DNA from: Spirochaetia bacterium
GTDB taxonomy: Bacteria; Spirochaetota; Spirochaetia; SZUA-6; Bin103
NCBI GenBank assembly: GCA_965198005.1
Contig: CBDAOI010000004.1
Span: 1,632,001-1,696,000 of the forward strand
DNA length: 64,000 nt
Reading direction: 5' to 3'
Position numbers and translations under genes: made by a program. The notes under the pieces were generated by a model. It was given only the letters and a program-made list of their open reading frames with translations, was not told the DNA's origin and made no database searches. Below are positions 17,375-49,542 of the stretch, piece by piece. Positions within the stretch are counted from its first letter, which is position 1, and each line of letters starts with the position of its first letter.

Positions 17375-19156
17375 TCAGAATCCCATTTCTTTCTTCAGGG
17401 CACTATCAATCCAGAGACGGGAGAAGATCACTTCCTCGCCCCCGCTTGATATCAGTTCACCGTTATAGCCTATGAGCCACGGCTGGTTCACCGAAAACTG
17501 TGGAAGCAAAGGACCATATATCGTCCAGTATTGCTCTAATGCGTACATGACCAAGTCTGGCACCAGCCTGTTCCGCTCCTCGACGGTGGTCGCGGCTGCG
17601 GCTGCGGCATGCATGGCGTCATAAGTCGGGTCGTTGACGCTGCTATTTACACCATCCGTGGTAAACCCACTCATGATTGACACTGCCCACTGCATGGAAA
17701 CAGCATACGCCGTATCGTTACTGGCCATTTCGTATTCCTGAGCTTTTCTTCTGGGGCCCCATGCAGCGTTTGGCGTTACTTCAACCTCCACATCAACGCC
17801 AATCTTCTTCCAGTATGAAGCGGCTAATTCCGCATAGTTTAGATCGAAACGCTCAAGGTGCATCAACACGGTCTTGAATCTAGTGCCGTCCGCGCCGCGA
17901 GGATACCCGGCAGCATCAAGCAACGCTTCGGCCCCTTCCGGGTTATACGTGCGGCCCTTCTGGAGCTCCTCGGGCCACTCTTCAAATGGGGTGGAACCGT
18001 CTGTCATGAAACGGCCCAGCCGCCCTTGAGGCATCGGATCTGAGAAACCCTTGAAGTACGAATTGTCAATGGTTTCGAAGTCCAGTGCCATGTTCATTGC
18101 CTTGCGCACCCTGATGTCGTCAAAGGGTTCTATCTGAGTGTTCATTGCAAAACCATTGTCCGATCGAAACCGTACCGGCCACAATTCGACGTCGGGGTTG
18201 GTCCGCTGGATGCTCTCTACCTGCTCGATAGTCCGGAGTTGAGCTACCCCGGCCACACCCACGTAATCCACCTTACCCGTGCGCATTGCCGCCAGTTGTG
18301 TTGCCACTTCGGGCATAATCAGAGCCCTTAACGTGTCAACATATGGCAAACGGTTTTCCGGGTATTTTTCGTCGTAGCCCCAGTAGCCAGGATTCTTGGT
18401 ATAGGTGATGGAGCTGCCCTCGGTCCAGTCAGTCAGCTCAAAAGGACCGGTGCCGACCAGGTTGCTCCAAGCCGTTACGTCCCCGTGTTCCTTGATCACC
18501 TCGGGGGGGTACATGACAGCAAGGGAGTCGTCGAGGATAACCATCAGCGTAAGGAGATTTGGCTCCTTCAGCTTGAAAACCACCGTCCATTTGTCGGTGG
18601 CCGTTATGGATTCGAATGACACCCCAGTCAAAACACTATAAGCAGCGCTAGGTTCGGTGAAGCCGCTGCCCAGACCCAGAGTACGGTGAAAGTTATATAC
18701 GACATCGTCGGCAGTCAGCTCCCGACCGTTCATTGGTGCCTTATCGTGCCAGTGAACGCCCTGGCGGACTTTGACGACAACTGTTTTGTCGTCGGGCATT
18801 TCCCAGCTCTCCGCCAGAGCCCCCCTCGTGTACTTTGGAGCGGCCATGGTCGGGAAGTTATATTCGTCCCTGGGCGTTGCCCAGTCGCCGATGCCTAGCT
18901 TCTCTACGACCAGGCCCACGGCCACGACACCCCCACTCAAATGTTTGTCAGTATGCGAGGGCGATTCTTTCTTGACGTAGGTTATTGTCCCGCCATACTC
19001 CGGCGCGGTCACCATCTTGCCGGTGGTCGGGTCGGTCACCATTTCCTTCTCCATCGCCGCGGCCGGCTCCTCCTCCGAGGCAGCCGCCCAGAGGCCGGTG
19101 GCGGTCAGTGCGAGGCCACACAGCACGGCGAGCGAAATGCGCATTACGAAATGCAT
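17375..19156 (-). CDS. ABC transporter substrate-binding protein, family 5
   Basis: Signal peptide, PEYGG, LAESWE, VGTGPF, PFDDIRVRKA. Confidence 0.93.
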   Translation of the reverse strand: MHFVMRISLAVLCGLALTATGLWAAASEEEPAAAMEKEMVTDPTTGKMVTAPEYGGTITYVKKESPSHTDKHLSGGVVAVGLVVEKLGIGDWATPRDEYNFPTMAAPKYTRGALAESWEMPDDKTVVVKVRQGVHWHDKAPMNGRELTADDVVYNFHRTLGLGSGFTEPSAAYSVLTGVSFESITATDKWTVVFKLKEPNLLTLMVILDDSLAVMYPPEVIKEHGDVTAWSNLVGTGPFELTDWTEGSSITYTKNPGYWGYDEKYPENRLPYVDTLRALIMPEVATQLAAMRTGKVDYVGVAGVAQLRTIEQVESIQRTNPDVELWPVRFRSDNGFAMNTQIEPFDDIRVRKAMNMALDFETIDNSYFKGFSDPMPQGRLGRFMTDGSTPFEEWPEELQKGRTYNPEGAEALLDAAGYPRGADGTRFKTVLMHLERFDLNYAELAASYWKKIGVDVEVEVTPNAAWGPRRKAQEYEMASNDTAYAVSMQWAVSIMSGFTTDGVNSSVNDPTYDAMHAAAAAATTVEERNRLVPDLVMYALEQYWTIYGPLLPQFSVNQPWLIGYNGELISSGGEEVIFSRLWIDSALKKEMGF

Positions 19157-19172
19157 CAGATAACTCCTGTTG

Positions 19173-19260
19173 CTCGAGAGTACTGAATCGACTGCCGGCC
19201 CCTCGCCTACTCTCGAGTTATGCCTGCTTCAACGCCGGCGAGCACAAGCGAGGGCGACAG
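19173..19260 (-). promoter_or_regulatory. Conserved two-helix RNA element upstream of the SBP Shine-Dalgarno (copy 1)
   Basis: Helix B CTCGAGAGTA/TACTCTCGAG; helix A CTGTCG-CCCTCGCTT pairs with AGGCGAGGG-CGGCAG; homologs at 35851 and 47623. Confidence 0.7.
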
Positions 19261-19313
19261 CGCGGGTCCCCAGGCGGTACGGCGCTTGGAGACGAGCCCG
19301 GGTTTAGTCGTGG

Positions 19314-19340
19314 TTAGTCGTAACCGGTCTTGGGTGCCAT
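19314..19340 (-). CDS. Putative leader peptide MAPKTGYD
   Basis: AAGGAGG SD upstream; homologous to MTPKTGYD at 35780 with synonymous codon changes. Confidence 0.6.
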   Translation of the reverse strand: MAPKTGYD

Positions 19341-19739
19341 CCCATCCTCCTTTGACGTGCGCGCACCACCGGCCGTTCGGATCGCGTCGGGACCTGCGTC
19401 CCAGCGTCCACGCGGCTGGCGAGGCGAGTTGGATTGGATTGGCCGGCGACGCCGGCGGTAGAGTTGATAAGTGGGTTGATGAGGCCCGGTACGCCGGTCT
19501 CGGCGCTGAACGGACACCGCGTGAGGCGCCGGATGGGTTAGCTGTGTTGGGGGGGGGGGACTCCTCACCATTAAGCAAGCGCGCCGCGAGCTGATTTTCA
19601 GCAAATCTCGGCGCGCGGCTGTCAGGGGAACAGAGTGTCATAAGCGTTGACGTGTTATAAGTCACTCAAGCCCTCCGCAGGTGAGGCACAGCCATACCCA
19701 GATGTAGTCGCGATGTCGCGATTGACTGGATCCCACCCT

Positions 19740-19768
19740 ATCGTAACCTCCGCTCCCGTGGACGTCAA
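19740..19768 (-). promoter_or_regulatory. Sigma70-type promoter TTGACG-N17-TACGAT for the SBP leader
   Basis: Same position as TTGACT-N17-TATTAT at 35277 within the homologous block. Confidence 0.7.
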
Positions 19769-20224
19769 CCACGAATCGGCCCAGCAATTCTCGGTGAACG
19801 GCAGTCGATGGCCTGAAGAGACAGTCTGGAGGGGCCCCCACCATTCGCCAACCCCCGCCGCGAAAGGATTCCGGGGGGGAGGGGATGGGCAAGGGTAGGA
19901 CGCGCCGGTTGCGTTGCCCCTAACCGGTGGCAGCGCTGAGTAGTGTTTTCAGCCATCTTTTGCATCCGTTCAAACCTGAGACTTTCAGTATGCCACCCCT
20001 GCGGCACAAATCAACAGGAAAAACTGGCGAATTGAAGGTTTCTTGAGATTTCTTTCGGGCAGCCGCGGCAGCCGAGAGCCCCTCGCGGCGCCGACTCGGG
20101 CGCATCGCCCCTCCAGAGCCGTCATTCGCCGGCGATGTGGCCGTCCGCAGGCCGTTCACCGTCCACGTCGGCCTCACAGCGGCCCGCTGAGGGCATTCCA
20201 GCCCCTCGGGGGTAGCCTGGGTAC

Positions 20225-22140
20225 GAGCGCCAGGCTAACTGGCATATGACAGAGGGTGAAAGTCCCTCGGAACGAAGGAGCAGCCAATCCACGTTTCTCC
20301 GCGAGCCGTGCGTTGGCACCTGCGAGGGTGCAGGCGAAGCGTCGGCAGCGGTGCGTGCGGGCAGAGTTATGGAGCGCCGCAAAATACGACATCTGGAGTG
20401 CCGAGACTCTGTACTCGGTCGAAGGCAACACCGGTCGAGCCAGTATGGTGAGGATCGACCGGGCTCCACGGCGTCGAAGAACTCAGGCACGTGCGTACGT
20501 CATATACCGGGACCTGGGAGGTCTTCGGGTCGTCCCGGCGAGTCGTCGCCGGGACCGCGGAGGGAAGGCGTGAGGCTGGACCAAAGATGAACGACCCGAA
20601 GGAGTCGGACATGGGCATAGTAGCGGCGAAGCCGGCGAACAAGGGAGCGCAAGCGACTGCGGAGACGGTGGAGCGAAGGCCCATGACCAACGGGAATTCG
20701 CAAGGTCAAAGCACGGGCCGGACGCAGAGTCGGGCAACCGTGACACAGGCGGCCGAGCGGATACGGCAATTCGTAAAGAGAGAACCGCAGGAGAAACTCA
20801 CTGCGCTGCTGCACCACGTGACGCCGGAAGCGCTGCGGGTGGCCTATTACGCGCTGAAGCGTGAAGCGGCCCCGGGGGTGGACGGGATGACGTGGCGGGA
20901 GTACGAGACGGGGTTGGAAGTGCGCTTGCACGACCTGCACCGGCGAGTACACACAGGAGCGTACCGAGCGACCCCGGTACGGCGGGTCAACATCGACAAG
21001 CCGGACGGAGGCACACGACCGCTGGGGGTGGCCGCGCTGGAGGACAAGATCGTCCAGAAGGCCGTGGTGGATGTGATCCTGACACCGATCTATGAGGAGG
21101 AATTTCTCGGGATCAGCTATGGGTTTCGACCGGGGCGCGGGGCACACGATGCGTTGGACGCACTGGCCTACGCCATCGAACGGCGCGAAGTGAACTGGAT
21201 ATTGGACGCGGACATTCGCGCCTACTTCGACACGATCTCGCGGGACTGGTTGATCAGATTCCTGGAGCATCGGATTGGAGATCGGCGGGTGCTGCGGCTG
21301 ATAAAGAAGTGGCTGCGCGCTGGGGTACTGGAAGAAGGCCGACAGATCGACGCGGGGCGGGGTACAGCGCAAGGGTCGGTGATTTCACCGATGCTCGCGA
21401 ATATATACTTGCACTACGTGTTGGACCTGTGGGTCACCAAGAAGTGGCGGCCGCAGGAGGCGCGCGGAGACATGATCATAGTGCGCTACGCAGATGACTA
21501 TGTCGCCGGGTTCGAGCATCGTGACGATGCGGAACGCTTCCTGCGGGAACTGAAGGAGCGATTCAGAGGCTTCGAGCTGGAACTGAACGCCGACAAGACC
21601 CGACTCCTCGAGTTTGGACGGTATGCCGAAAGGAACCGCCGAGCACGTGGGGAAGGGCGACCGGAGACGTTCGACTTTCTGGGTTTCACGCATTATTGCA
21701 GGAAGGACAGGAAAGGACGCTTCGGGCTGGGGCGGAAGCCAATTCGGAAGCGGATGAATCGTACGCTGAAGAGGATCAAGATCGAGCTCCGCAGACGAAT
21801 GCATGATGACGTGATGGAAACCGGGCGCTGGCTGGGACGGGTACTGCGCGGATGGCTCAACTACTACGCGGTACCCACCAGCTACCGCTATCTGCACCGA
21901 TTCGTGTGGCGTCTGCGAGGAATCTGGGTAAAGATTCTACGCCGGAGGTCCCAGAAGGACCGATTCTCCTGGGCTTGGATGCTGGCGATCAGCATCAAGC
22001 TGTGGCCCCAACCCCGAATCGTACACTCATGGCCGGACCGGCGATTTGCCGTCAACCACCGAAGGTAGGAGCCGGATGGTTTAACGACCACGTCCGGATC
22101 TGTGCGGGGGGCGCCGGGTAACCGGCGTTCCTACCGCGCC
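20225..22140 (+). mobile_element. Group II intron, full length, probably bacterial class E-like
   Basis: RT ORF; D5 GAGCCGGATG..CGTCCGGATC at about 22069; D6 ending CCTACCGCGCC; EBS1 GTACTC (20411-16) pairs with IBS1 GGGTAC (20219-24); boundaries agree with the empty-site homolog at 22560. Confidence 0.9.
20587..22068 (+). CDS. ltrA: Group II intron reverse transcriptase/maturase, no endonuclease domain
   Basis: AAPGVDG, RPLGVAALEDKIVQ, GTAQG..ISPMLANIYLH, VRYADD, FDFLGF, maturase GWLNYY. Confidence 0.93.
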   Translation: MNDPKESDMGIVAAKPANKGAQATAETVERRPMTNGNSQGQSTGRTQSRATVTQAAERIRQFVKREPQEKLTALLHHVTPEALRVAYYALKREAAPGVDGMTWREYETGLEVRLHDLHRRVHTGAYRATPVRRVNIDKPDGGTRPLGVAALEDKIVQKAVVDVILTPIYEEEFLGISYGFRPGRGAHDALDALAYAIERREVNWILDADIRAYFDTISRDWLIRFLEHRIGDRRVLRLIKKWLRAGVLEEGRQIDAGRGTAQGSVISPMLANIYLHYVLDLWVTKKWRPQEARGDMIIVRYADDYVAGFEHRDDAERFLRELKERFRGFELELNADKTRLLEFGRYAERNRRARGEGRPETFDFLGFTHYCRKDRKGRFGLGRKPIRKRMNRTLKRIKIELRRRMHDDVMETGRWLGRVLRGWLNYYAVPTSYRYLHRFVWRLRGIWVKILRRRSQKDRFSWAWMLAISIKLWPQPRIVHSWPDRRFAVNHRR

Positions 22141-33806: not shown

Positions 33807-34490
<684 letters not shown>

Positions 34491-34493
<3 letters not shown>

Positions 34494-34850
34494 CTCGGAC
34501 TCTACGAGTCGTGGGGCTTTCGGGAGGTGTGGGTGGAGGTGCCGGACGAGCCTGCGCCGAGCCGGCCGGCTGTGCTTGGTCCCGGTCTGACGATCTACGT
34601 GTCGGGGCGGGCGGGGCTGCGTCCGGCGCCGGCGAGCTGAATCGGGTGGGGCGTTTGCTGGGTGCTGCGGAGGGCACGGGGCCGGATAGCGATCCGTTCT
34701 TGCGGAGCCAGCGCCGCGAGAGCCACGCCGCGGGATGGGTAGGGGGGCATGCCGAAGGCCGGGCGGAGGCCCAGCGTGCGAGTGCGCTACAGGTGCTCGA
34801 GACCCGTGGCGTTGCCGTATCGGCTTCCCTGGCGGCGCGGTTGGCAGAGA
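34491..34850 (+). pseudogene. Second Uma2-like remnant
   Basis: KLGLYESWGFREVWVEVPD and RVGRLLG..GTGPDSDPFLR in broken frames. Confidence 0.55.
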
Positions 34851-34946
34851 TGGACACGCACCACACCTCTCACCTTGACCCTGCGTCGGAATGCGCCGGA
34901 AAAGGTGCTTGACGCCTTGCTGTCTCCCGAGACGGCGAGCCCGCCC

Positions 34947-35113: not shown

Positions 35114-35276
35114 ACCTCATCTTACCCCGTCGCCGGTCGAGTGGCCGCCGCCGGCGCAGCCTGATCGCGGGTGCTACGCCGGGCGTAAGCTTGTCGACGG
35201 GGTGTCGGAGTGTCGGGGTGCTGATCGATCTGCCGGGTGACTTCAAGAAACTTCGGCAGTTGGGCCGTTTCGTGGT

Positions 35277-35305
35277 TTGACTCCCACGGGAGCCGAGGTT
35301 ATTAT
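35277..35305 (+). promoter_or_regulatory. Sigma70 promoter TTGACT-N17-TATTAT for the SBP leader
   Basis: Consensus spacing; homologous to 19740-19768. Confidence 0.72.
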
Positions 35306-35311
35306 ATGGTG

Positions 35312-35495
35312 GGATGCAGTCAATCGTGACTACATCTGGGTATAGCTGTGCCTCACCTGCGGAGGGCTTGAGTGACTTATAACACGTCAACGCTTATGAC
35401 ACTCTGTTCCCCTGACAGCCGCTCGCCGAGAATTGCTGAAAATCAGCTCGCGGCGGGCTTGCTTAATGGTGAGGAGTCCCCCCCCACACACACAC
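35312..35495 (+). ncRNA. Candidate structured 5' leader domain (homolog at about 19545-19733, minus strand)
   Basis: CCTCACC(35351)/GGTGAGG(35468) closing helix, GAGTG/CACTC arm, GCTCGCCG/CGGCGGGC arm with GCTGA-AAA-TCAGC tip. Confidence 0.5.
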
Positions 35496-35779
35496 TTTTC
35501 GTACAACAGAGCAACCGAGAACAACTAACCGCTCCGGCTGATCGCTCCGTGCGCGTCCCCGCGCACGCCGTCGCCTTCACCACGACGCCTGCGCCCACGG
35601 CGGCAGCCAGCCGTGGCGCCGGCTCGTGCGATCGCCGACCGAGCCAGCGCAGCGACGTCGTCACCTTCACAGCCCGCCACCGCCCGGCGCCGGCCTTGCC
35701 GACCACTCGGACTCGCTGCCTCGCCGACCGACACAGGCGTGGGGTGCCACGCCTGTCCACGCATACAAGGAGGCACGGG

Positions 35780-35806
35780 ATGACACCCAAGACGGGATAC
35801 GACTAA
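35780..35806 (+). CDS. Putative leader peptide MTPKTGYD
   Basis: AAGGAGG SD; conserved with 19314-19340. Confidence 0.6.
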   Translation: MTPKTGYD

Positions 35807-35850
35807 CGCCCCAAGACCGCCGCGCGGGGCGGACACGGAACGACCGAGGG

Positions 35851-35905
35851 TGTCGCCCTTGCTTTCGAGAGTAGGCGAGGGGTCGGCAGTGGAATCGGTA
35901 CTCTC
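35851..35905 (+). promoter_or_regulatory. Conserved two-helix RNA element (copy 2)
   Basis: GAGAGTA/TACTCTC; TGTCG-CCCTTGCTT pairs with AGGCGAGGG-CGGCA. Confidence 0.7.
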
Positions 35906-35932
35906 AGAATCAACAATTCGAGGAGATTCTCA

Positions 35933-37717
35933 ATGAGTAATCTGTTCAAAACATGCGTCGCCGTAGTGTTCGGTCTCGTGCTGATCGCCATCGGCGTCGG
36001 GGCAAGCCCGGCCGGGGAAGAGGAGCCGGCCGCGGCGATGGAGAAGGAGATGGTGCTCGACCCCACCACCGGCAAGATGGTGTCGGCGCCGGAGTATGGC
36101 GGCACATTCACCTGGGGCGATGCCACCGGGGCTCCGCACTGTGACCCTCACATCCATGGCTGGGGGCCACGGGCCATCGACGGCGTTGCAGAGAGGCTAG
36201 GCATCAGGGACTGGGCAGCAGATAGGAACGAAATCAGCTTTTCAGACTCTTATACTCCTCTCCGTTTCGTGAGAGGGGCGCTGGCGGAAAGCTGGGAGAT
36301 GATCGACTCACTGACGTATGTCTACCACATCCGCAAGGGCGTTCGCTGGCACGACAAAGCGCCGATGAATGGTCGGGAGTTCACTGCCCAGGATGTCGTA
36401 TACAACTTTCACCGTTATACGGGTTCGGGCAGCGGCTTCACCGAACCTAGCGCCGCTGCTGGCACACTCGCTTCGATACCACTCGAATCGATAACCGCCA
36501 GCGACGATTCGACGGTTGTCTTCAAGCTGACGCAGCCAAAGGTAGACTTGCTGGATGTCCTTGCCATCGACTGGAGTGCCGCTATGTTACCCCCAGAGGT
36601 AATCGAGCAATACGGCGACCTGACGGACTGCGACAACATGGTCGGTACCGGGCCCTATATGCTGACAGAATGGGTCGATAACACGTCTATGACGTATTCC
36701 AAGAATCCTGACTACTGGGGCTTTGACGAAAAATATCCGGAGAACCGCTTGCCCTACATCGACCAGATAAACCGGCTAATCATGCCGGAAAAGGAAACAC
36801 AGCTGGCGGCGCTACGCTCGGGTAGGCTCGATTACATCGGTCAGTCCGGCGGGGGTCAGTTACAAGTGGCCCAGGTGGAGAACCTACAGCGGACCAACCC
36901 CGAAATCGTTTTATACCCGTGGGCCTTTCGGTCGGAGACCTCTGTTGCATTCAACCTGCGCCACCCGTCGCCCTTTCAAGACATCAGGGTTCGCAAGGCG
37001 ATGCAGATGGCCATTGATCTGGAGACCATCAACAATACTTACTTTCGTGGCTTTGCAATGACGAAACCCCAAGGAATCATAGGAGACGGTCTGAAGGGGT
37101 ACTACATCCCATTCGAAGAGTGGCCCGAAGAGACCAGGAAAGTCTTTGCGTATGACCCGGAAGGGGCCGAAGCGTTGCTTGATGAGGCTGGGTATCCGCG
37201 CGGTGCGGATGGCATTCGATTCAAGACCGTCCTGAACCCCGTGCCCTCGTGGGATGTGGGTTATCAAGAAATAGCCGCTGAATACTGGGCTGCGATTGGC
37301 GTTGACGTAGAGGTTAAGATAACTGAAGTCGCTCAACTGATGGCGCTGGTAACTGAAGGTACTTATGAAGGGATGGCCTATATGGATATCGGCAATGACG
37401 GCTCGATTCAATGGCTGATGAGTGTTCTTCAAATCGGAGCGCAATGGGGCCGCACAGGACATCAGGACCCGGTGATGGACGCCAAGGCAAAAGCCGCTAT
37501 GGCCGCTACCAGGCTCGAGGAGCAGCAGCGGCTGGTGGCGGAGGCAGATATGTACTCGATCCAGCAGCATTGGTTCATATGGGGTCCTAAAGTTCCCCAA
37601 TTTGAGGCGGTGCAGCCGTGGGTGATAGGTTTTAACGGTGAAATCTGGTATACTACACATGCGCCTTTCGAGCGCCTGTGGATCGATAGTGCGCTGAAGA
37701 GCGAAATGGGTTTCTGA
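35933..37717 (+). CDS. ABC transporter substrate-binding protein, family 5
   Basis: Signal peptide, EEEPAAAMEKEMV, PEYGG, LAESWE, VGTGPY. Confidence 0.93.
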   Translation: MSNLFKTCVAVVFGLVLIAIGVGASPAGEEEPAAAMEKEMVLDPTTGKMVSAPEYGGTFTWGDATGAPHCDPHIHGWGPRAIDGVAERLGIRDWAADRNEISFSDSYTPLRFVRGALAESWEMIDSLTYVYHIRKGVRWHDKAPMNGREFTAQDVVYNFHRYTGSGSGFTEPSAAAGTLASIPLESITASDDSTVVFKLTQPKVDLLDVLAIDWSAAMLPPEVIEQYGDLTDCDNMVGTGPYMLTEWVDNTSMTYSKNPDYWGFDEKYPENRLPYIDQINRLIMPEKETQLAALRSGRLDYIGQSGGGQLQVAQVENLQRTNPEIVLYPWAFRSETSVAFNLRHPSPFQDIRVRKAMQMAIDLETINNTYFRGFAMTKPQGIIGDGLKGYYIPFEEWPEETRKVFAYDPEGAEALLDEAGYPRGADGIRFKTVLNPVPSWDVGYQEIAAEYWAAIGVDVEVKITEVAQLMALVTEGTYEGMAYMDIGNDGSIQWLMSVLQIGAQWGRTGHQDPVMDAKAKAAMAATRLEEQQRLVAEADMYSIQQHWFIWGPKVPQFEAVQPWVIGFNGEIWYTTHAPFERLWIDSALKSEMGF

Positions 37718-37914
37718 GCATGTCGCCGTAGGCGACTTGCAGTGGACCCGCCTTCAGGCGGGGCACGAGCGGCTCCGCCGTTGGCTGAATCAATCGCCCG
37801 TTGGGCGATTGAAACGGGAGTCGCTGCGCGACTCCACGAGCACCGCGGGCGCCGGGAGGACGCTTCCGAGTGCGCTTCAGAGCGCGCTTCCCGGCGCTCA
37901 TTTACCACGAAGAT

Positions 37915-38868
37915 ATGAGAGCCTATGTCATCAGGCGCGTATTGCTGGTCATCCCCACTCTGTTCATATTGACCATAGTCGTCTTTCTCTCGGTCCACTT
38001 CCTCCCGGGCGATGTCATAGACGCCATGGTGGGTGACATGCAATACCAAATGGGCTTCGACCGTGCAGCTCTCGAGCGTATGCTGGGATTGGATGTGCCT
38101 GTCCCCGTGCAGTATGGACGCTGGATAGGAGGTATCTTCCTGCACGGCACACTTGGCGAATCGCTGTGGGGCGATAGCCCGGTAGAGGAGTTGCTACGAG
38201 ACGGGCTGCCGGTAACGCTGGGGCTTGGCTTCCTGGCTATCGTCATCGGGCTGGTGATCGCGCTGCCGGTCGGCATCTTCTCGGCGATCCGTCAGGGTAC
38301 CTTTACCGACTACGCGGGGCGCTCGGTCGCCATCATCGGCCTGGCAACGCCCAACTTCTGGATAGCAGTCATGGTCTTGCTGTATCCGGCCATCTGGTGG
38401 GGCTGGACGCCGCCCTTGCAGTGGGTTCCCTTCACCGAAGACCCGCTGGGGAATCTCGGGGTGCTGATCATTCCCAGTCTGATTCTGGGGACCTACCTGT
38501 CGGCCAGCACCATGCGGATGATCCGCACCACGATGCTGGAGGTGCTCCGGCAGGATTATGTGCGGACGGCCTGGTCGAAGGGGTTGCGGGAGCGGGCCGT
38601 GGTGATGCGACATGTCGTCAAGAATGCCCTCATCCCGGTGGTTTCGCTGGTCGGCCTGCAGTTGCCGATCCTGGTCGGCGGGTCGGTGATCATCGAGAAC
38701 ATATTCAACCTGCCGGGCGTAGGTCGGCTCATGGTAGATGCGCTGGGACGCAGAGACTACCCGGTGGTCTCCGGTGTGAACCTGATGTTCGCCACTGGGG
38801 TCATGGCGATCAATCTGGTTACCGACCTGATGTATCCCTATCTGGACCCCCGACTCCGTTATGAATGA
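37915..38868 (+). CDS. ABC permease (DppB-like)
   Basis: MRAYVIRR, DYVRTAWSKGL. Confidence 0.93.
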   Translation: MRAYVIRRVLLVIPTLFILTIVVFLSVHFLPGDVIDAMVGDMQYQMGFDRAALERMLGLDVPVPVQYGRWIGGIFLHGTLGESLWGDSPVEELLRDGLPVTLGLGFLAIVIGLVIALPVGIFSAIRQGTFTDYAGRSVAIIGLATPNFWIAVMVLLYPAIWWGWTPPLQWVPFTEDPLGNLGVLIIPSLILGTYLSASTMRMIRTTMLEVLRQDYVRTAWSKGLRERAVVMRHVVKNALIPVVSLVGLQLPILVGGSVIIENIFNLPGVGRLMVDALGRRDYPVVSGVNLMFATGVMAINLVTDLMYPYLDPRLRYE

Positions 38869-39733
38869 TAGGGGGCGCAGTTTCTTTGTCAGGCTGTGGC
38901 GGGAACGGCCGGTGGGTGCTGTCGGCGGCATCATCGTACTGATCTTGATTCTGGTCAGTATCTTGGCCGATTTCCTTGCGCCTTATCGCCCGCGGGAGGT
39001 GAACCTGCCAGACATCTTGCAAGGTCCGTCGGCCACTCATCTCCTGGGTGCCGACCACCTGGGGCGAGACGTCCTGAGCCGCCTCATTCACGGGGCGCGC
39101 ATCTCGATATTCGTCGGGTTTGCCGCGACCACCCTCAACGTTGTCGTGGCCGGGCTGATCGGCGGCACGTCGGGCTTCCTGGGCGGCAAGCTGGACCTGG
39201 TGGTGCAGCGCTTCGTCGATGCCTGGATGTCGTTCCCGGGACTACTGCTGCTGTTGACGGTCATGTCGATAACGGGGCGGGGGATTCTACAGCTCATCGT
39301 GGTGCTGGGCATCGTCGGCGGCATCCCCGCCTCACGCGTGGTGCGAGGGGCTGTGCTCGGGGTCAAGGAGAATACCTACTTTCAAGCCGCGGAGGTGATC
39401 GGCTGCTCGACAGGGAAGACGCTGGTTCGCCACGTGCTGCCCAACATCGCGGCTCCGATAATCGTCATCTTCAGCATCAACATCGGGGCGGTGATCATCA
39501 CCGAGGCGTCTCTGAGCTTCCTCGGTTTCGGTCTGCCGCTCCGGATTCCCAGTTGGGGCGGCATGCTCAGTCGGGAAGGGCGCCAGTACATGGAGATGGC
39601 GCCGCGGCTGGCTCTGTGGCCCGGCCTCTGCCTGACGATCGTCGTCTACAGTCTGAACATGTTCGGCGACGCGGTGCGCGACCTGCTCGACCCGCGGCTG
39701 CGCGGTGGTACCGGTCGTTACGGCGGCAGGTAA
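38861..39733 (+). CDS. ABC permease (DppC-like)
   Basis: LGADHLGRD, HVLPN, EASLSFLGFG, GDAVRDLLDP. Confidence 0.93.
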   Translation: MNDRGRSFFVRLWRERPVGAVGGIIVLILILVSILADFLAPYRPREVNLPDILQGPSATHLLGADHLGRDVLSRLIHGARISIFVGFAATTLNVVVAGLIGGTSGFLGGKLDLVVQRFVDAWMSFPGLLLLLTVMSITGRGILQLIVVLGIVGGIPASRVVRGAVLGVKENTYFQAAEVIGCSTGKTLVRHVLPNIAAPIIVIFSINIGAVIITEASLSFLGFGLPLRIPSWGGMLSREGRQYMEMAPRLALWPGLCLTIVVYSLNMFGDAVRDLLDPRLRGGTGRYGGR

Positions 39734-47248: not shown

Positions 47249-47622
47249 CCCTGGGTGGCGAGGTTCGCCGAGCGTGATCCGCCACGAGCCGGGCGCCTGG
47301 GGTTGGGGTGACCGGGGGTGACCACCGAGTCGTTTGACAGGGTGGCCGCGTCCATGCTAGCGTGCCTCGCCTTGGGGTTTGACGGATCGGTGATGAAGCG
47401 CCATGATGACAGTCAGCGCGGTGACCGGTTGGCGGTGACGCAGGGTATCGCGCGTTGCCTATACTCACACCCCAATGGGGTCACACCGGCCATGGTGTCG
47501 CCCCGGGCGGCCGGTGCTTGCAGTCGTACAAGGAGGAGCCGCACCCGGATGTAGAGCCTGACCGTATACGGATAGAGCGGGATCAAGCCCGAGCGGCCCC
47601 GCGCCGACTCGGCAACTCCAGC

Positions 47623-47708
47623 CTGCCGCCCTTCGCTTTCGGGTCGCCTGCAATGCAGCCAGACCTCGGGAGTAGGCGAAGGACCGGCAGTGGCCTCAGT
47701 ACTCCCGA
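47623..47708 (+). promoter_or_regulatory. Conserved two-helix RNA element (copy 3)
   Basis: TCGGGAGTA/TACTCCCGA and CTGCCG-CCTTCGCTT/AGGCGAAGG-CGGCAG, with compensatory changes relative to copies 1 and 2. Confidence 0.72.
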
Positions 47709-47727: not shown

Positions 47728-49542
47728 ATGAGTAGCGGAATGACCAAAACGTGCCTCGCGGTGCTGTTCGGTCTCGCCTTGGCCGTGACCGGCCTCTGGG
47801 CGGCTGCCGCCGAAGAGGAGCCGGCCGCGGCGATGGAGAAGGAGATGGTGCTCGACCCCACCACCGGAGAGATGGTGAGCGCGCCGGAGTACGGCGGGAC
47901 CATCACCAGTCTGTTCCATCCCGGCTGGCAGACCGAGCATGCCGACATGTGGCACTACCGCAGTGTCATCCACCCCACCAAGATCGTCTTGGAGAGAATG
48001 GGTGGCGGTGACTGGGGACTGCCCAGAGACGAATTCGCCTTCGCCGGTGCCATCCCGAATCTACCTCAATACACCGGCAAGCTGGCCGAGAGCTGGGAAC
48101 AGCCCGACGCCACGACGATTGTTCTCAACATCCGCAAGGGGGTGAAGTGGCACGACAAGGAACCGATGAACGGCCGCGAGCTGGTCGCCGACGACGTCGT
48201 GTTCAACTTCAGTCGCAATCTGGGGCTGGGCGAGTTTGCCGCGGATGGACCGAGCCCGGTGATCAGCGTGCTGGGGACGCTGCCGGTCGAATCGATCACG
48301 GCAACCGACAGCCATACGGTCGTGATCACGTTGCAGCAACCGATGCTCGCCGCGCTGTACCACATCATCGCCGACATCTACGGCAATCAGTACCCGCCCG
48401 AAGTGATCAGGCAGGACGGCGACGCCAAGGATTGGAACAAGCTGGTAGGCACCGGGCCGTTCATGTTGACCGACAGGGTGGAAGACGTTGCCCTGACCTA
48501 TACCAAGAACCCGGACTATTGGGGCTTTGACGAGAAGTTTCCGGACAACCGCCTGCCCTATGTCGACGAGTTCAGGGGCGTGATCATGCCGGACGAATCG
48601 ACGCGCCTGGCGGCGCTGCGCTCGGGCCAGCTCGACGTGCTGGGTGGTCCCGCCGCGTATGCGCTCTCACCCGGCCCCTCGACCGAGGGCCTGGCGCGCA
48701 CCAACGCGGAGCTCAAACAGTTTGCGTACCAGAATCGCAGCCAGAATTCCGCCGCCTTCAACCTGAAAGCGCCGCCCTTCGACGACGTTCGGGTGCGTAG
48801 GGCGATCCAGATGGCCCTCGACCTGGAGACGGTAGCGGCCACCTACTTCAAGGGCTATGCAGATCCCACACCTCGCGGCGTGGTCGGCATCGCCAACACC
48901 GGGTACGCGTTCCCGGTTGCGGAGTGGTCCGACGAACTCAAGGGTTACTACAGCTATGACCCGGCAGGAGCAGAGGCGCTCCTCGATGAGGCGGGATATC
49001 CGCGCGGCGCCGACGGCGTCAGATTCCAGACCATATTCAACGCCCATCCCAGCCCAGCGGCAACCGATCAGGGCTTTGTCGCGATAATGATCCAGTTTTG
49101 GGATGCGATCGGCGTCGACGTGGACCTCTTGGTCGCGGATGGCGCGGCCTTCGGCCCGATGATCCAGAATGCCGACTACGAAGGGATACTCTGGTTCATT
49201 ACCGGCTGGAACAGGCCGCTTCCGGTGACCACCATCGGCTGGCAGGCCACGGGTGCGTACAACAACGCCACCGGACACAGCGTGGAGGAGTATGACGCGA
49301 TGATCGCCGCCGTGGGCGCGGCGACGACGGTCGAGGAGGAACGGCAGTTGATCCTGGAGGCGGATCGGTACCTGATCGAGAATCACCTGTACCTGTGGGG
49401 TCCGATCATGCCGCAGGTTGCGGTGACGCAGCCGTGGATCGTCGGCTACAACGGCGAAAACAATCTGGGCGACGTCGACAGCTACACGATCTTTGCTCGC
49501 CTGTGGATCGACCACCAGATGAAGGAGTCGATGGGGCACTAG
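47728..49542 (+). CDS. ABC transporter substrate-binding protein, family 5
   Basis: Same N-terminal signature and family-5 motifs as the other SBPs. Confidence 0.93.
   Translation: MSSGMTKTCLAVLFGLALAVTGLWAAAAEEEPAAAMEKEMVLDPTTGEMVSAPEYGGTITSLFHPGWQTEHADMWHYRSVIHPTKIVLERMGGGDWGLPRDEFAFAGAIPNLPQYTGKLAESWEQPDATTIVLNIRKGVKWHDKEPMNGRELVADDVVFNFSRNLGLGEFAADGPSPVISVLGTLPVESITATDSHTVVITLQQPMLAALYHIIADIYGNQYPPEVIRQDGDAKDWNKLVGTGPFMLTDRVEDVALTYTKNPDYWGFDEKFPDNRLPYVDEFRGVIMPDESTRLAALRSGQLDVLGGPAAYALSPGPSTEGLARTNAELKQFAYQNRSQNSAAFNLKAPPFDDVRVRRAIQMALDLETVAATYFKGYADPTPRGVVGIANTGYAFPVAEWSDELKGYYSYDPAGAEALLDEAGYPRGADGVRFQTIFNAHPSPAATDQGFVAIMIQFWDAIGVDVDLLVADGAAFGPMIQNADYEGILWFITGWNRPLPVTTIGWQATGAYNNATGHSVEEYDAMIAAVGAATTVEEERQLILEADRYLIENHLYLWGPIMPQVAVTQPWIVGYNGENNLGDVDSYTIFARLWIDHQMKESMGH

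Follow-up and report, generated by a model that had tools for sequence, protein, structure and literature searches.

A conserved eight-codon upstream reading frame, a candidate cis-acting leader peptide, in peptide-importer leaders of a sponge-associated Spirochaetia bacterium

Introduction

We analyzed a stretch of 64,000 nucleotides (nt) from a Spirochaetia bacterium (GenBank assembly GCA_965198005.1, contig CBDAOI010000004.1, positions 1,632,001 to 1,696,000 of the forward strand; hereafter the window), in which two leaders on opposite strands carry nearly the same eight-codon open reading frame (ORF) ahead of genes for substrate-binding proteins (SBPs) of peptide importers. The genome belongs to an uncultured, sponge-associated bacterium and comprises 4 contigs, with 4.89 Mb and 66% G+C. 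An earlier note, made from the sequence of the window, had proposed that this mini-ORF is translated into a selected peptide, M-[AT]-PKTGYD, that regulates the uptake genes behind it. Here we report the codon-level evidence for such a peptide, its distribution and the leaders in which it is found, and we weigh a cis-acting leader peptide against other explanations.

Results

Two mini-ORFs precede substrate-binding protein genes

Both mini-ORFs begin a few bases behind an AAGGAGG Shine-Dalgarno (SD) sequence and are followed, in order, by a conserved box, a hairpin (here called the switch) and an SBP gene; two permease genes come after the SBP gene of copy 1 (Table 1). On re-reading, the sequence, SD and spacing of both sites proved to be exactly as the earlier note had given them, and two of the three differences between the copies are indeed synonymous (ACG/ACC and GGA/GGT), the third being ACA/GCA (Thr/Ala). 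ATGRCNCCNAARACNGGNTAYGAYTRR, a degenerate back-translation of M-[AT]-PKTGYD-stop, matches the window at these 2 sites only and was found in 0 of 100 shuffles (up to 2 mismatches). The 3' end of the 16S rRNA of this genome contains CCTCC and, since it ends in GGATCACCTCCTTT, AAGGAGG is a perfect SD. The region around the mini-ORF is also predicted to be comparatively open, with an unpaired probability of 0.40–0.65 over −20 to +35 and of mostly about 0.25–0.35 in the flanks (−70 to −30 and +50 to +115). Each site has what characterizes a leader peptide, namely a brief ORF, served by a ribosome-binding site of its own, within the presumed transcribed leader of a regulated gene.

Two longer frames overlap these sites. 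A 144-codon ORF (35372–35806), in frame with mini-ORF copy 1, was rejected because conservation is absent upstream of the SD, and a 13-codon ORF, MGWHPRPVTTNHD, which overlaps copy 2 directly after its SD (spacing 0), was set aside because it is confined to closely related copies with the ATGGGATGG spacer.

Table 1. Positions of the mini-ORFs and associated features in the window.
Feature	Position	Strand	Remarks
SD AAGGAGG, mini-ORF copy 1	35767–35773	+	six bases to ATG; complementary to 16S rRNA 3' end GGATCACCTCCTTT
Mini-ORF copy 1, ATG ACA CCC AAG ACG GGA TAC GAC TAA (MTPKTGYD)	35780–35806	+	
SD AAGGAGG, mini-ORF copy 2	19346–19352	−	five bases to ATG
Mini-ORF copy 2, ATG GCA CCC AAG ACC GGT TAC GAC TAA (MAPKTGYD)	19314–19340	−	
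Promoter-like site TTGACT, 17 nt, TATTAT	35277–35305	+	consensus scan, 10/12 positions; shuffle mean 0.1
Conserved box GTGTCGCCCTTGCTTTC, copy 1	35850–35866	+	alignment; CCCTTGC can pair with hairpin loop GCGAGGG (pseudoknot)
Switch hairpin GAGAGTA...TACTCTC, copy 1	35867–35905	+	just 5' of transporter ribosome-binding site
Conserved box CTGTCGCCCTCGCTTG, copy 2	19245–19260	−	
Switch hairpin CTCGAGAGTA...TACTCTCGAG, copy 2	19173–19217	−	
SBP gene, copy 1, 594 aa, SBP_bac_5	35933–37717	+	PF00496, E 7e-68
OppB/OppC-type permease genes	37870–38868, 38861–39733	+	PF00528 both; PF12911 second
SBP gene, copy 2, 593 aa, SBP_bac_5	17375–19156	−	PF00496, E 4.7e-67
Third leader, AAGGAGG	47530–47536	+	12 bases upstream of ATG
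Third leader, mini-ORF ATG TAG AGC CTG ACC GTA TAC GGA TAG	47549–47575	+	MQILTVYG type; compare intact MQILTVYG and MQTLTVYD copies
Third leader, switch hairpin	47668–47706	+	
Third leader, SBP_bac_5 gene, intact	47728–49542	+	

Codon-level variation points to selection on the encoded peptide

The earlier note had proposed looking among relatives for M.PKTGYD and for conservation at the codon level. This search yielded 19 distinct copies after removal of duplicates (10 in this genome, G000; 3 in G007; 4 in G010; one on a contig of a metagenome-assembled genome (MAG); and one on a metagenome contig), with third-position variation in codons 3–8. For codon and column counts the copies were lined up on the ATG. 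Codon 2 appears as CAA, CAG, CCA, ACA, ACG, GCA or GAA, encoding Q, P, T, A or E. Codon 3 is CCC in 18 copies and CCG in one (Pro), codon 4 is AAG in 17 and CGC in two (Lys, Arg), and codon 5 is ACC in 18 and ACG in one (Thr). All four Gly codons occur at codon 6 (GGA in 12 copies, GGT in 3, GGC in 2 and GGG in 2), codons 7 and 8 are TAC (Tyr) and GAC (Asp) in all 19, and the stop is TAA in 18 and TAG in one. From codon 3 through the stop, variation is limited to positions 8, 14, 17 and 26, each the third base of its codon, and to the Lys/Arg codon as a whole, where the exchange of AAG for CGC alters all three bases and keeps a basic residue. At least 8 of the 9 minimal changes are synonymous or stop-preserving, compared with 14 of the 63 possible single-base changes (binomial p = 4e-5, a rough value because the copies are paralogues and orthologues and so not independent samples).

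Column entropy told the same story on either side of the frame. It stays at 0–0.5 bit from −3 to the stop, save for codon 2 and the Gly third position, and rises to ~1.7 bits at the first base past the stop; upstream of the ATG only the SD (−13 to −5) and the GGG before the ATG, which is near-invariant, are conserved. ORF, SD and stop are kept as one unit with both flanks scrambled. An AGGAGG-type SD (up to 1 mismatch) stands 5–7 nt ahead of the ATG in 17 of the 19 copies, the other two (L010 and L012) having purine-rich G runs in its place, and its spacing is proper although the spacer sequence differs between copies. Sister forms differ by in-frame deletions, as in MKHPTRYD versus MKSPYD (6 nt) and MTPRTGYD versus MTPD (12 nt). 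The preference for TAA is likewise at odds with the 1355 long ORFs of the genome, which end in TGA (863), TAG (378) or, in only 8%, TAA (114). Translation of the mini-ORF and selection on residues 3–8, not on residue 2, are well supported by these features, namely third-position-only variation in codons 3–8 (the one Lys-to-Arg change excepted) and conservation from SD to stop across the 19 copies, so that the proposal of a selected peptide stood up to the larger sample. What is conserved is the peptide sequence rather than the mere presence of an ORF, as in the termination-arrest class of leader peptides.

An untranslated RNA or DNA site that merely resembles an ORF while serving a protein, small RNA or local fold would account for the conservation of several synonymous sites above the level of the flanks and for the near-invariant GGG. 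It would also fit the start-less leaders described below, which keep GGGAT...GACTAACGC, and the co-variation of GGT...TAA with GGC...TAG in a possible hairpin, GGYUA-CGAC-UARCC, in two close copies. We nevertheless regard such a site as highly unlikely. The variable sites have a three-base periodicity and conservation ends exactly at the stop, SD spacing is proper despite spacer variation, related classes differ by in-frame deletions, the putative hairpin is unsupported in the 12 GGA copies, and the region has no Rfam match. The hairpin itself is seen at 19327–19312 (−), where the end of the mini-ORF can fold as GGUUA-CGAC-UAACC, and in a close paralogue (G000 C4:2346335–2346361), where it reads GGCUA-CGAC-UAGCC; the compensatory pair joins the Gly third position and the stop, and the other copies lend it no support.

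The reading that we put first, while stopping short of calling it probable, is that M-x-P-K/R-T-G-Y-D-stop is a real translated upstream ORF encoding a cis-acting regulatory leader peptide of Opp/Dpp-type importer operons. Action in cis seems most likely because an eight-residue chain never leaves the ribosome before its release, and the conservation pattern would be best explained by the peptide acting in cis, either on the peptidyl-transferase centre or on the termination step.

The mini-ORF is multi-copy and, within the order, confined to the genus

The genome of the window has 8 matches to M-x-PKTGYD-stop and 0 to a reversed control pattern; permitting Arg for Lys adds 2 MTPRTGYD frames, for a total of 10 mini-ORFs, all of which stand upstream of a switch hairpin. 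Of the order's 92 genomes, 3 contain the pattern, namely this genome, G007 (3 copies) and G010 (4 copies), so that 2 of 10 further genus members and none of the 81 genomes outside the genus are positive, again with no reversed control match. Scanning one genome for each prokaryote species gave 8 stretches, of which six lie in two records titled Spirochaetia bacterium, one is L022 and one is a chance match. The metagenome scan gave one true copy, with a deletion downstream of the mini-ORF, and one chance match. The two chance matches, L019 (inside a coding region) and L025 (in AT-rich DNA), lie in unrelated settings and were discarded.

Two copies stand out by their surroundings. L022 is on a 209-kb contig of a MAG titled Aggregatilineales bacterium, and its leader is near-identical to those under Spirochaetia bacterium titles and has the same full architecture as the other copies; either this contig was binned wrongly or the titles in the public records conflict. 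In G007, the intact MAPKTGYD mini-ORF L013 directly follows the end of a permease gene and is itself followed by unrelated DNA with opposite-strand ORFs, which marks it as a leader remnant cut by an insertion.

That the same selected amino-acid core occurs up to ten times per genome, next to genes encoding peptide-binding proteins, could also mean that the octapeptide acts in trans, as an intracellular signal or as a ligand for a regulator or transporter. We find this very doubtful indeed: an export signal is missing from the peptide, genes for processing or export were not noted alongside, the mini-ORF always lies in cis within leaders and is never free-standing except for the remnant L013, and sister classes shrink to three codons or to a start codon followed by a stop.

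Mini-ORFs share their leaders with a pseudoknotted switch element

Promoter-like sites, called by consensus match only, lie upstream of both mini-ORFs, at ~475 nt for copy 1 and ~400 nt for copy 2. The copy 1 site is ~630 nt before the transporter gene and likely marks the start of a ~620-nt leader. In both leaders (35277–35500, +, and 19768–19560, −) this common promoter-like site is followed by ~170 nt of conserved sequence that ends in GGTGAGGAGT and a poly-C tract. Copy 1 has 7 C in this tract and copy 2 has 11 C, and other leaders of the genome have 19–20 C; because its length differs between copies, the tract may be unstable.

Downstream of the mini-ORF, the conserved box and the loop of the switch hairpin can pair as a pseudoknot, whose helix is paired in 98% of alignment cells and includes one C-G to U-A double change in 4 sequences. 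For hairpin and box together (23 pairs), 89.4% of cells are paired, compared with 28–51% in slid controls, and 8 pairs have double changes. The earlier note had placed the switch element 45–55 nt behind the mini-ORF, which holds for the box GTCGCCCT (45 and 55 nt) but not for the hairpin (60 and 99 nt). Transporter translation starts at least 126 nt past the mini-ORF stop (35806 to 35933 in copy 1). By sequence pattern the switch is confined to the genus, where it occurs 36 times in G000, 22 in G010, 8 each in G002 and G008, 7 in G007 and 2 in G001; two single matches outside the genus are at control level. Rfam held no family for the mini-ORF region or the switch at the gathering score anywhere in the window, and at E ≤ 10 over 35650–35960 returned only a chance-level tpke11 hit (E 3.4). 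Leaders L028 and L029 of G002 lack the module of SD and mini-ORF and have a strong promoter-like site (TTGACC, 17 nt, TATAGT) ~95 nt 5' of the switch hairpin, so the switch can stand without a mini-ORF.

A 572-nt contig from a sponge metatranscriptome library matches 35458–36029 with 0 mismatches and runs through mini-ORF and switch into the beginning of the transporter gene, which is weak evidence that mini-ORF and transporter gene are co-transcribed. The RNA data are contigs, from which transcript ends and levels cannot be read and in which uncovered bins (for example 35135–35241, four runs) prove nothing.

Two further features border these leaders. Just 5' of the copy 1 leader, a 299-codon ORF (34013–34912, +) matches only the middle of SBP_bac_5 (profile positions 115–253) and represents a truncated substrate-binding gene. 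Near the upstream end of the copy 2 leader lies a group II intron domain (RF02005, 169.5 bits; 20259–20483, +), followed by a 525-codon ORF (20491–22068).

A larger family of leaders carries graded mini-ORFs

The comparison took in 62 distinct leaders, of which this genome supplied 33 and relatives 29. AGGAGG (up to 1 mismatch) is present in 57 of them, and in 45 a start codon 3–14 nt behind it opens an ORF of at most 9 codons. These ORFs fall into lengths of 1 codon (ATG or TTG directly followed by TAG; 7 leaders), 3 codons (MQN, MRN, MEN, MKL, MKP, MKD and MFP; 13 leaders), 6 codons (8 leaders), 8 codons (16 leaders) and 9 codons (1 leader), and they end in TAA (25), TAG (11) or TGA (9). The only residues common to the eight-codon classes are T5, Y7 and D8 or G8. 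The PKTGYD peptide is one class within a larger, genus-restricted family of leaders bearing mini-ORFs.

Two of the short classes vary at the start of the frame. In the M-x-N class, the start at the proper SD spacing is often directly followed by TAG (G000 C2:465334, C3:886779 and C4:944730; L026, L031, L032 and L041); these start-stop pairs arise by CAG to TAG or by a 7-nt duplication (GATGTAG GATGCAG) and recur across several genomes. Another class retains AAAGGAGG, followed by six bases and a frame of three codons that ends TAA-CGC, and has ATA, GTA or CTA at the start position (G000 C4:700798, further C3/C4 copies, and L036, L047 and L048 of relatives), with ATG only in L039 (MKD). Its members either use non-canonical starts or are remnants of a deletion between GGGAT repeats.

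Several observations argue against steric coupling or a need for the peptide

Some of the contrary evidence lies within the mini-ORF and its surroundings. Synonymous sites besides the Gly codon are more uniform than the flanks; Pro is encoded by CCC in 18 of the 19 copies though the genome favors CCG for this residue, and codons 7 and 8 never deviate from TAC and GAC. An additional nucleotide- or codon-level constraint on the mini-ORF probably exists. The distance from the stop varies between 25 and 84 nt to the box and between 60 and 127 nt to the hairpin (in copies where a hairpin was found), with no fixed spacing. No intrinsic terminator was found on the leader strand over 35200–36000 or 19100–19900, and the linkers, whose C and G counts are balanced, are not C-rich and G-poor, as a Rho utilization (rut) site would be, with one copy excepted (20 C, 7 G), Rho sites being features that cannot be predicted reliably. 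The variable linker, the absent intrinsic terminator and the linker composition argue against tight steric coupling. Nor did inspection by eye or minimum free energy folds reveal any consistent base pairing between the mini-ORF and the box, hairpin or transporter ribosome-binding site. The metatranscriptome contig, for its part, is weak evidence because such libraries can contain DNA.

Classical attenuation by charged tRNA, in which a ribosome slows at a Pro, Lys, Thr, Gly, Tyr or Asp codon under scarcity and peptide uptake is switched on, would suit operons that encode Opp/Dpp-type peptide importers and would give a reason for the conserved amino-acid identity. As the earlier note had remarked, however, the frame has no run of sensor codons, codons 3–8 being six different ones (Pro, Lys, Thr, Gly, Tyr and Asp), and single codons confer weak sensitivity in known attenuators (trpL, pheL, hisL). 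Furthermore, no conserved terminator or alternative hairpin overlaps the end of the ORF, and the downstream distances vary. We judge this mechanism very unlikely.

The remaining contrary evidence comes from the sister leaders. The 62 leaders include 7 with a bare start-stop and 13 with only a 3-codon ORF, and in 17 no mini-ORF of up to 9 codons was found behind AGGAGG. Among these 17, seven keep the SD and the stop-like GACTAACGC end, with ATA, GTA or CTA replacing ATG; three (L012, L050 and L051) do carry an intact mini-ORF, their SD having been missed by the AGGAGG match. L033, also one of the 17, is a decayed copy of class A in which ATG has become AAG and 1 nt is inserted, and it still precedes an intact 612-codon ORF. 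In the third leader of the window, a TAG at codon 2 turns the mini-ORF into a start-stop pair, yet the SBP gene behind it is intact. The earlier note had named homologues with frameshifts or unbiased substitutions as evidence that would speak against the peptide; one frameshifted copy, L033, does exist, whereas substitutions among the 19 copies are biased toward synonymous ones. Sister leaders of the start-stop, decayed and start-less kinds may mean that ribosome loading alone is sufficient.

On such a loading explanation, a strong SD and a tiny ORF keep a ribosome on the long untranslated leader, where it could couple to RNA polymerase, block Rho or RNases or shield the pseudoknot from upstream sequence, and the peptide has no role. 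It draws on the SD being the most widely kept feature of the leaders, on the unrelated sequences of the sister ORFs of 1, 3 and 6 codons, on the seven leaders that retain an SD without a canonical start, on decayed or interrupted copies ahead of intact transporter genes and, if the predicted promoter is real, on the length of the leader. It leaves unexplained why residues 3–8 are conserved at the amino-acid level while codon 2 and the flanks drift, why Lys is exchanged for Arg through three base changes, why all four Gly codons are used and why TAA is preferred. We therefore consider loading by itself unlikely, though it deserves to be taken seriously.

Discussion

How a leader peptide of eight residues might act can be outlined by analogy. 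The nascent MxPKTGYD chain would set the dwell time of the ribosome at the stop codon, and this dwell may depend on a small molecule, as for MsrDL and TnaC. What becomes of the leader behind it would then hang on the parked or released ribosome, by way of Rho access, RNA decay or pseudoknot folding, and this would in turn set transporter expression. By comparison with characterized leader peptides, a stall at the mini-ORF stop codon, possibly ligand-dependent, is plausible, the preference for TAA being the one indirect hint of it.

The closest documented parallel is MsrDL, the leader peptide of the macrolide-resistance gene msrD, a hexapeptide, MYLIFM, with the ribosome stalled at the UAA stop; an alanine scan found every mutated residue to be needed except residue 2, and the variants mostly end in UAA (PMC10314930). 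Both systems have a very short leader ORF with its own ribosome-binding site and, as far as that account of MsrDL goes, residue 2 is dispensable there as codon 2 is free here, and UAA prevails in both. These shared traits (a very short peptide, a free residue 2 and the preference for UAA) lead us to favor a leader peptide that sets dwell time. The two also differ. In the MsrDL system as cited, a ribosome-bound antibiotic is sensed and an intrinsic terminator relieved, whereas here no terminator was found and the genes encode nutrient importers; the sequences MYLIFM and MxPKTGYD are dissimilar, and the stall is documented for MsrDL and hypothetical here.

TnaC senses a free metabolite, inhibits its own termination and controls the operon downstream (PMC8450073; 10.1101/2021.03.31.437805). 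This tryptophanase-operon leader governs a catabolic and uptake operon, where uptake operons are found here, and its 24 residues fill the exit tunnel and end in Pro-UGA, compared with 8 residues and an Asp-UAA end. TnaC is known to act through a Rho (rut) site adjoining its stop, whereas the base composition of the linkers behind MxPKTGYD does not resemble that of a rut site. The leader peptides of cat86 (5 residues) and cmlA (8 residues) undergo a ligand-dependent stall in which sequence matters, and they resemble MxPKTGYD in being ultra-short and in ending in Asp. There, the drug-dependent stall occurs during elongation and unmasks an adjacent ribosome-binding site, a mode of action that differs from the situation here, where the transporter start is at a distance from the stop. 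In the Mg2+-sensing mgtA leader, the short ORF mgtL is rich in proline codons and overlaps alternative stems. As in that leader, a short ORF and a structured sensing RNA would provide two inputs within one long leader, but here the ORF is set apart from the RNA element by a variable linker.

Minimal ORFs of this kind also have precedents. In Sinorhizobium meliloti, 13 of 15 tested upstream ribosome-binding sites were validated as translated (PMC13285730). The ATG-TAG pairs and 3-codon ORFs behind strong SDs in the sister leaders resemble bacterial start-stop and minimal ORFs, which are single loci acting by translational coupling to, or occlusion of, a nearby start in the cases cited (10.1101/520783). 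In contrast to those cases, the leaders described here belong to a paralogous family with many copies, in which one class has a conserved peptide and the main start lies far off.

A broader possibility is that the mini-ORFs form a family of termination-arrest peptides that sense natural metabolites, each class (x-PKTGYD, MKSPYD, MQ-x-LTVY-D/G, M-x-N and MK-P/L) being tuned to its own small molecule, for example the cargo of the transporter, alongside the shared pseudoknot RNA sensor. This is an improbable extension of the leader-peptide reading, though one with broad consequences.

A literature search for PKTGYD found no paper, and one that combined leader peptides with substrate-binding proteins turned up nothing concerning an MxPKTGYD system. 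Cis-regulatory leader peptides are already known as a kind of element; what is new is this peptide family, its occurrence in many copies across paralogous importer operons alongside a pseudoknot element, and the sister mini-ORFs of graded length. To our knowledge, few leader peptides sense natural metabolites, TnaC and SpeFL among them, and the well-studied ultra-short ones sense antibiotics. The MxPKTGYD mini-ORF, with a selected peptide in up to ten nutrient-uptake leaders per genome, offers a compact candidate case in which a nascent chain no longer than eight residues may control termination according to cell physiology. The sister ORFs of 1, 3 and 6 codons form a natural deletion series in which what the peptide does could be told apart from what ribosome loading does. 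Should the mini-ORF be only a ribosome-loading site, it would be a modest addition to the known bacterial upstream ORFs. The leaders also suggest a way in which this uncultured sponge associate may adjust its many paralogous transporters separately and, if the mini-ORFs are truly a metabolite-sensing family, dozens of paralogous uptake operons in one symbiont genome would be under individual two-input control.

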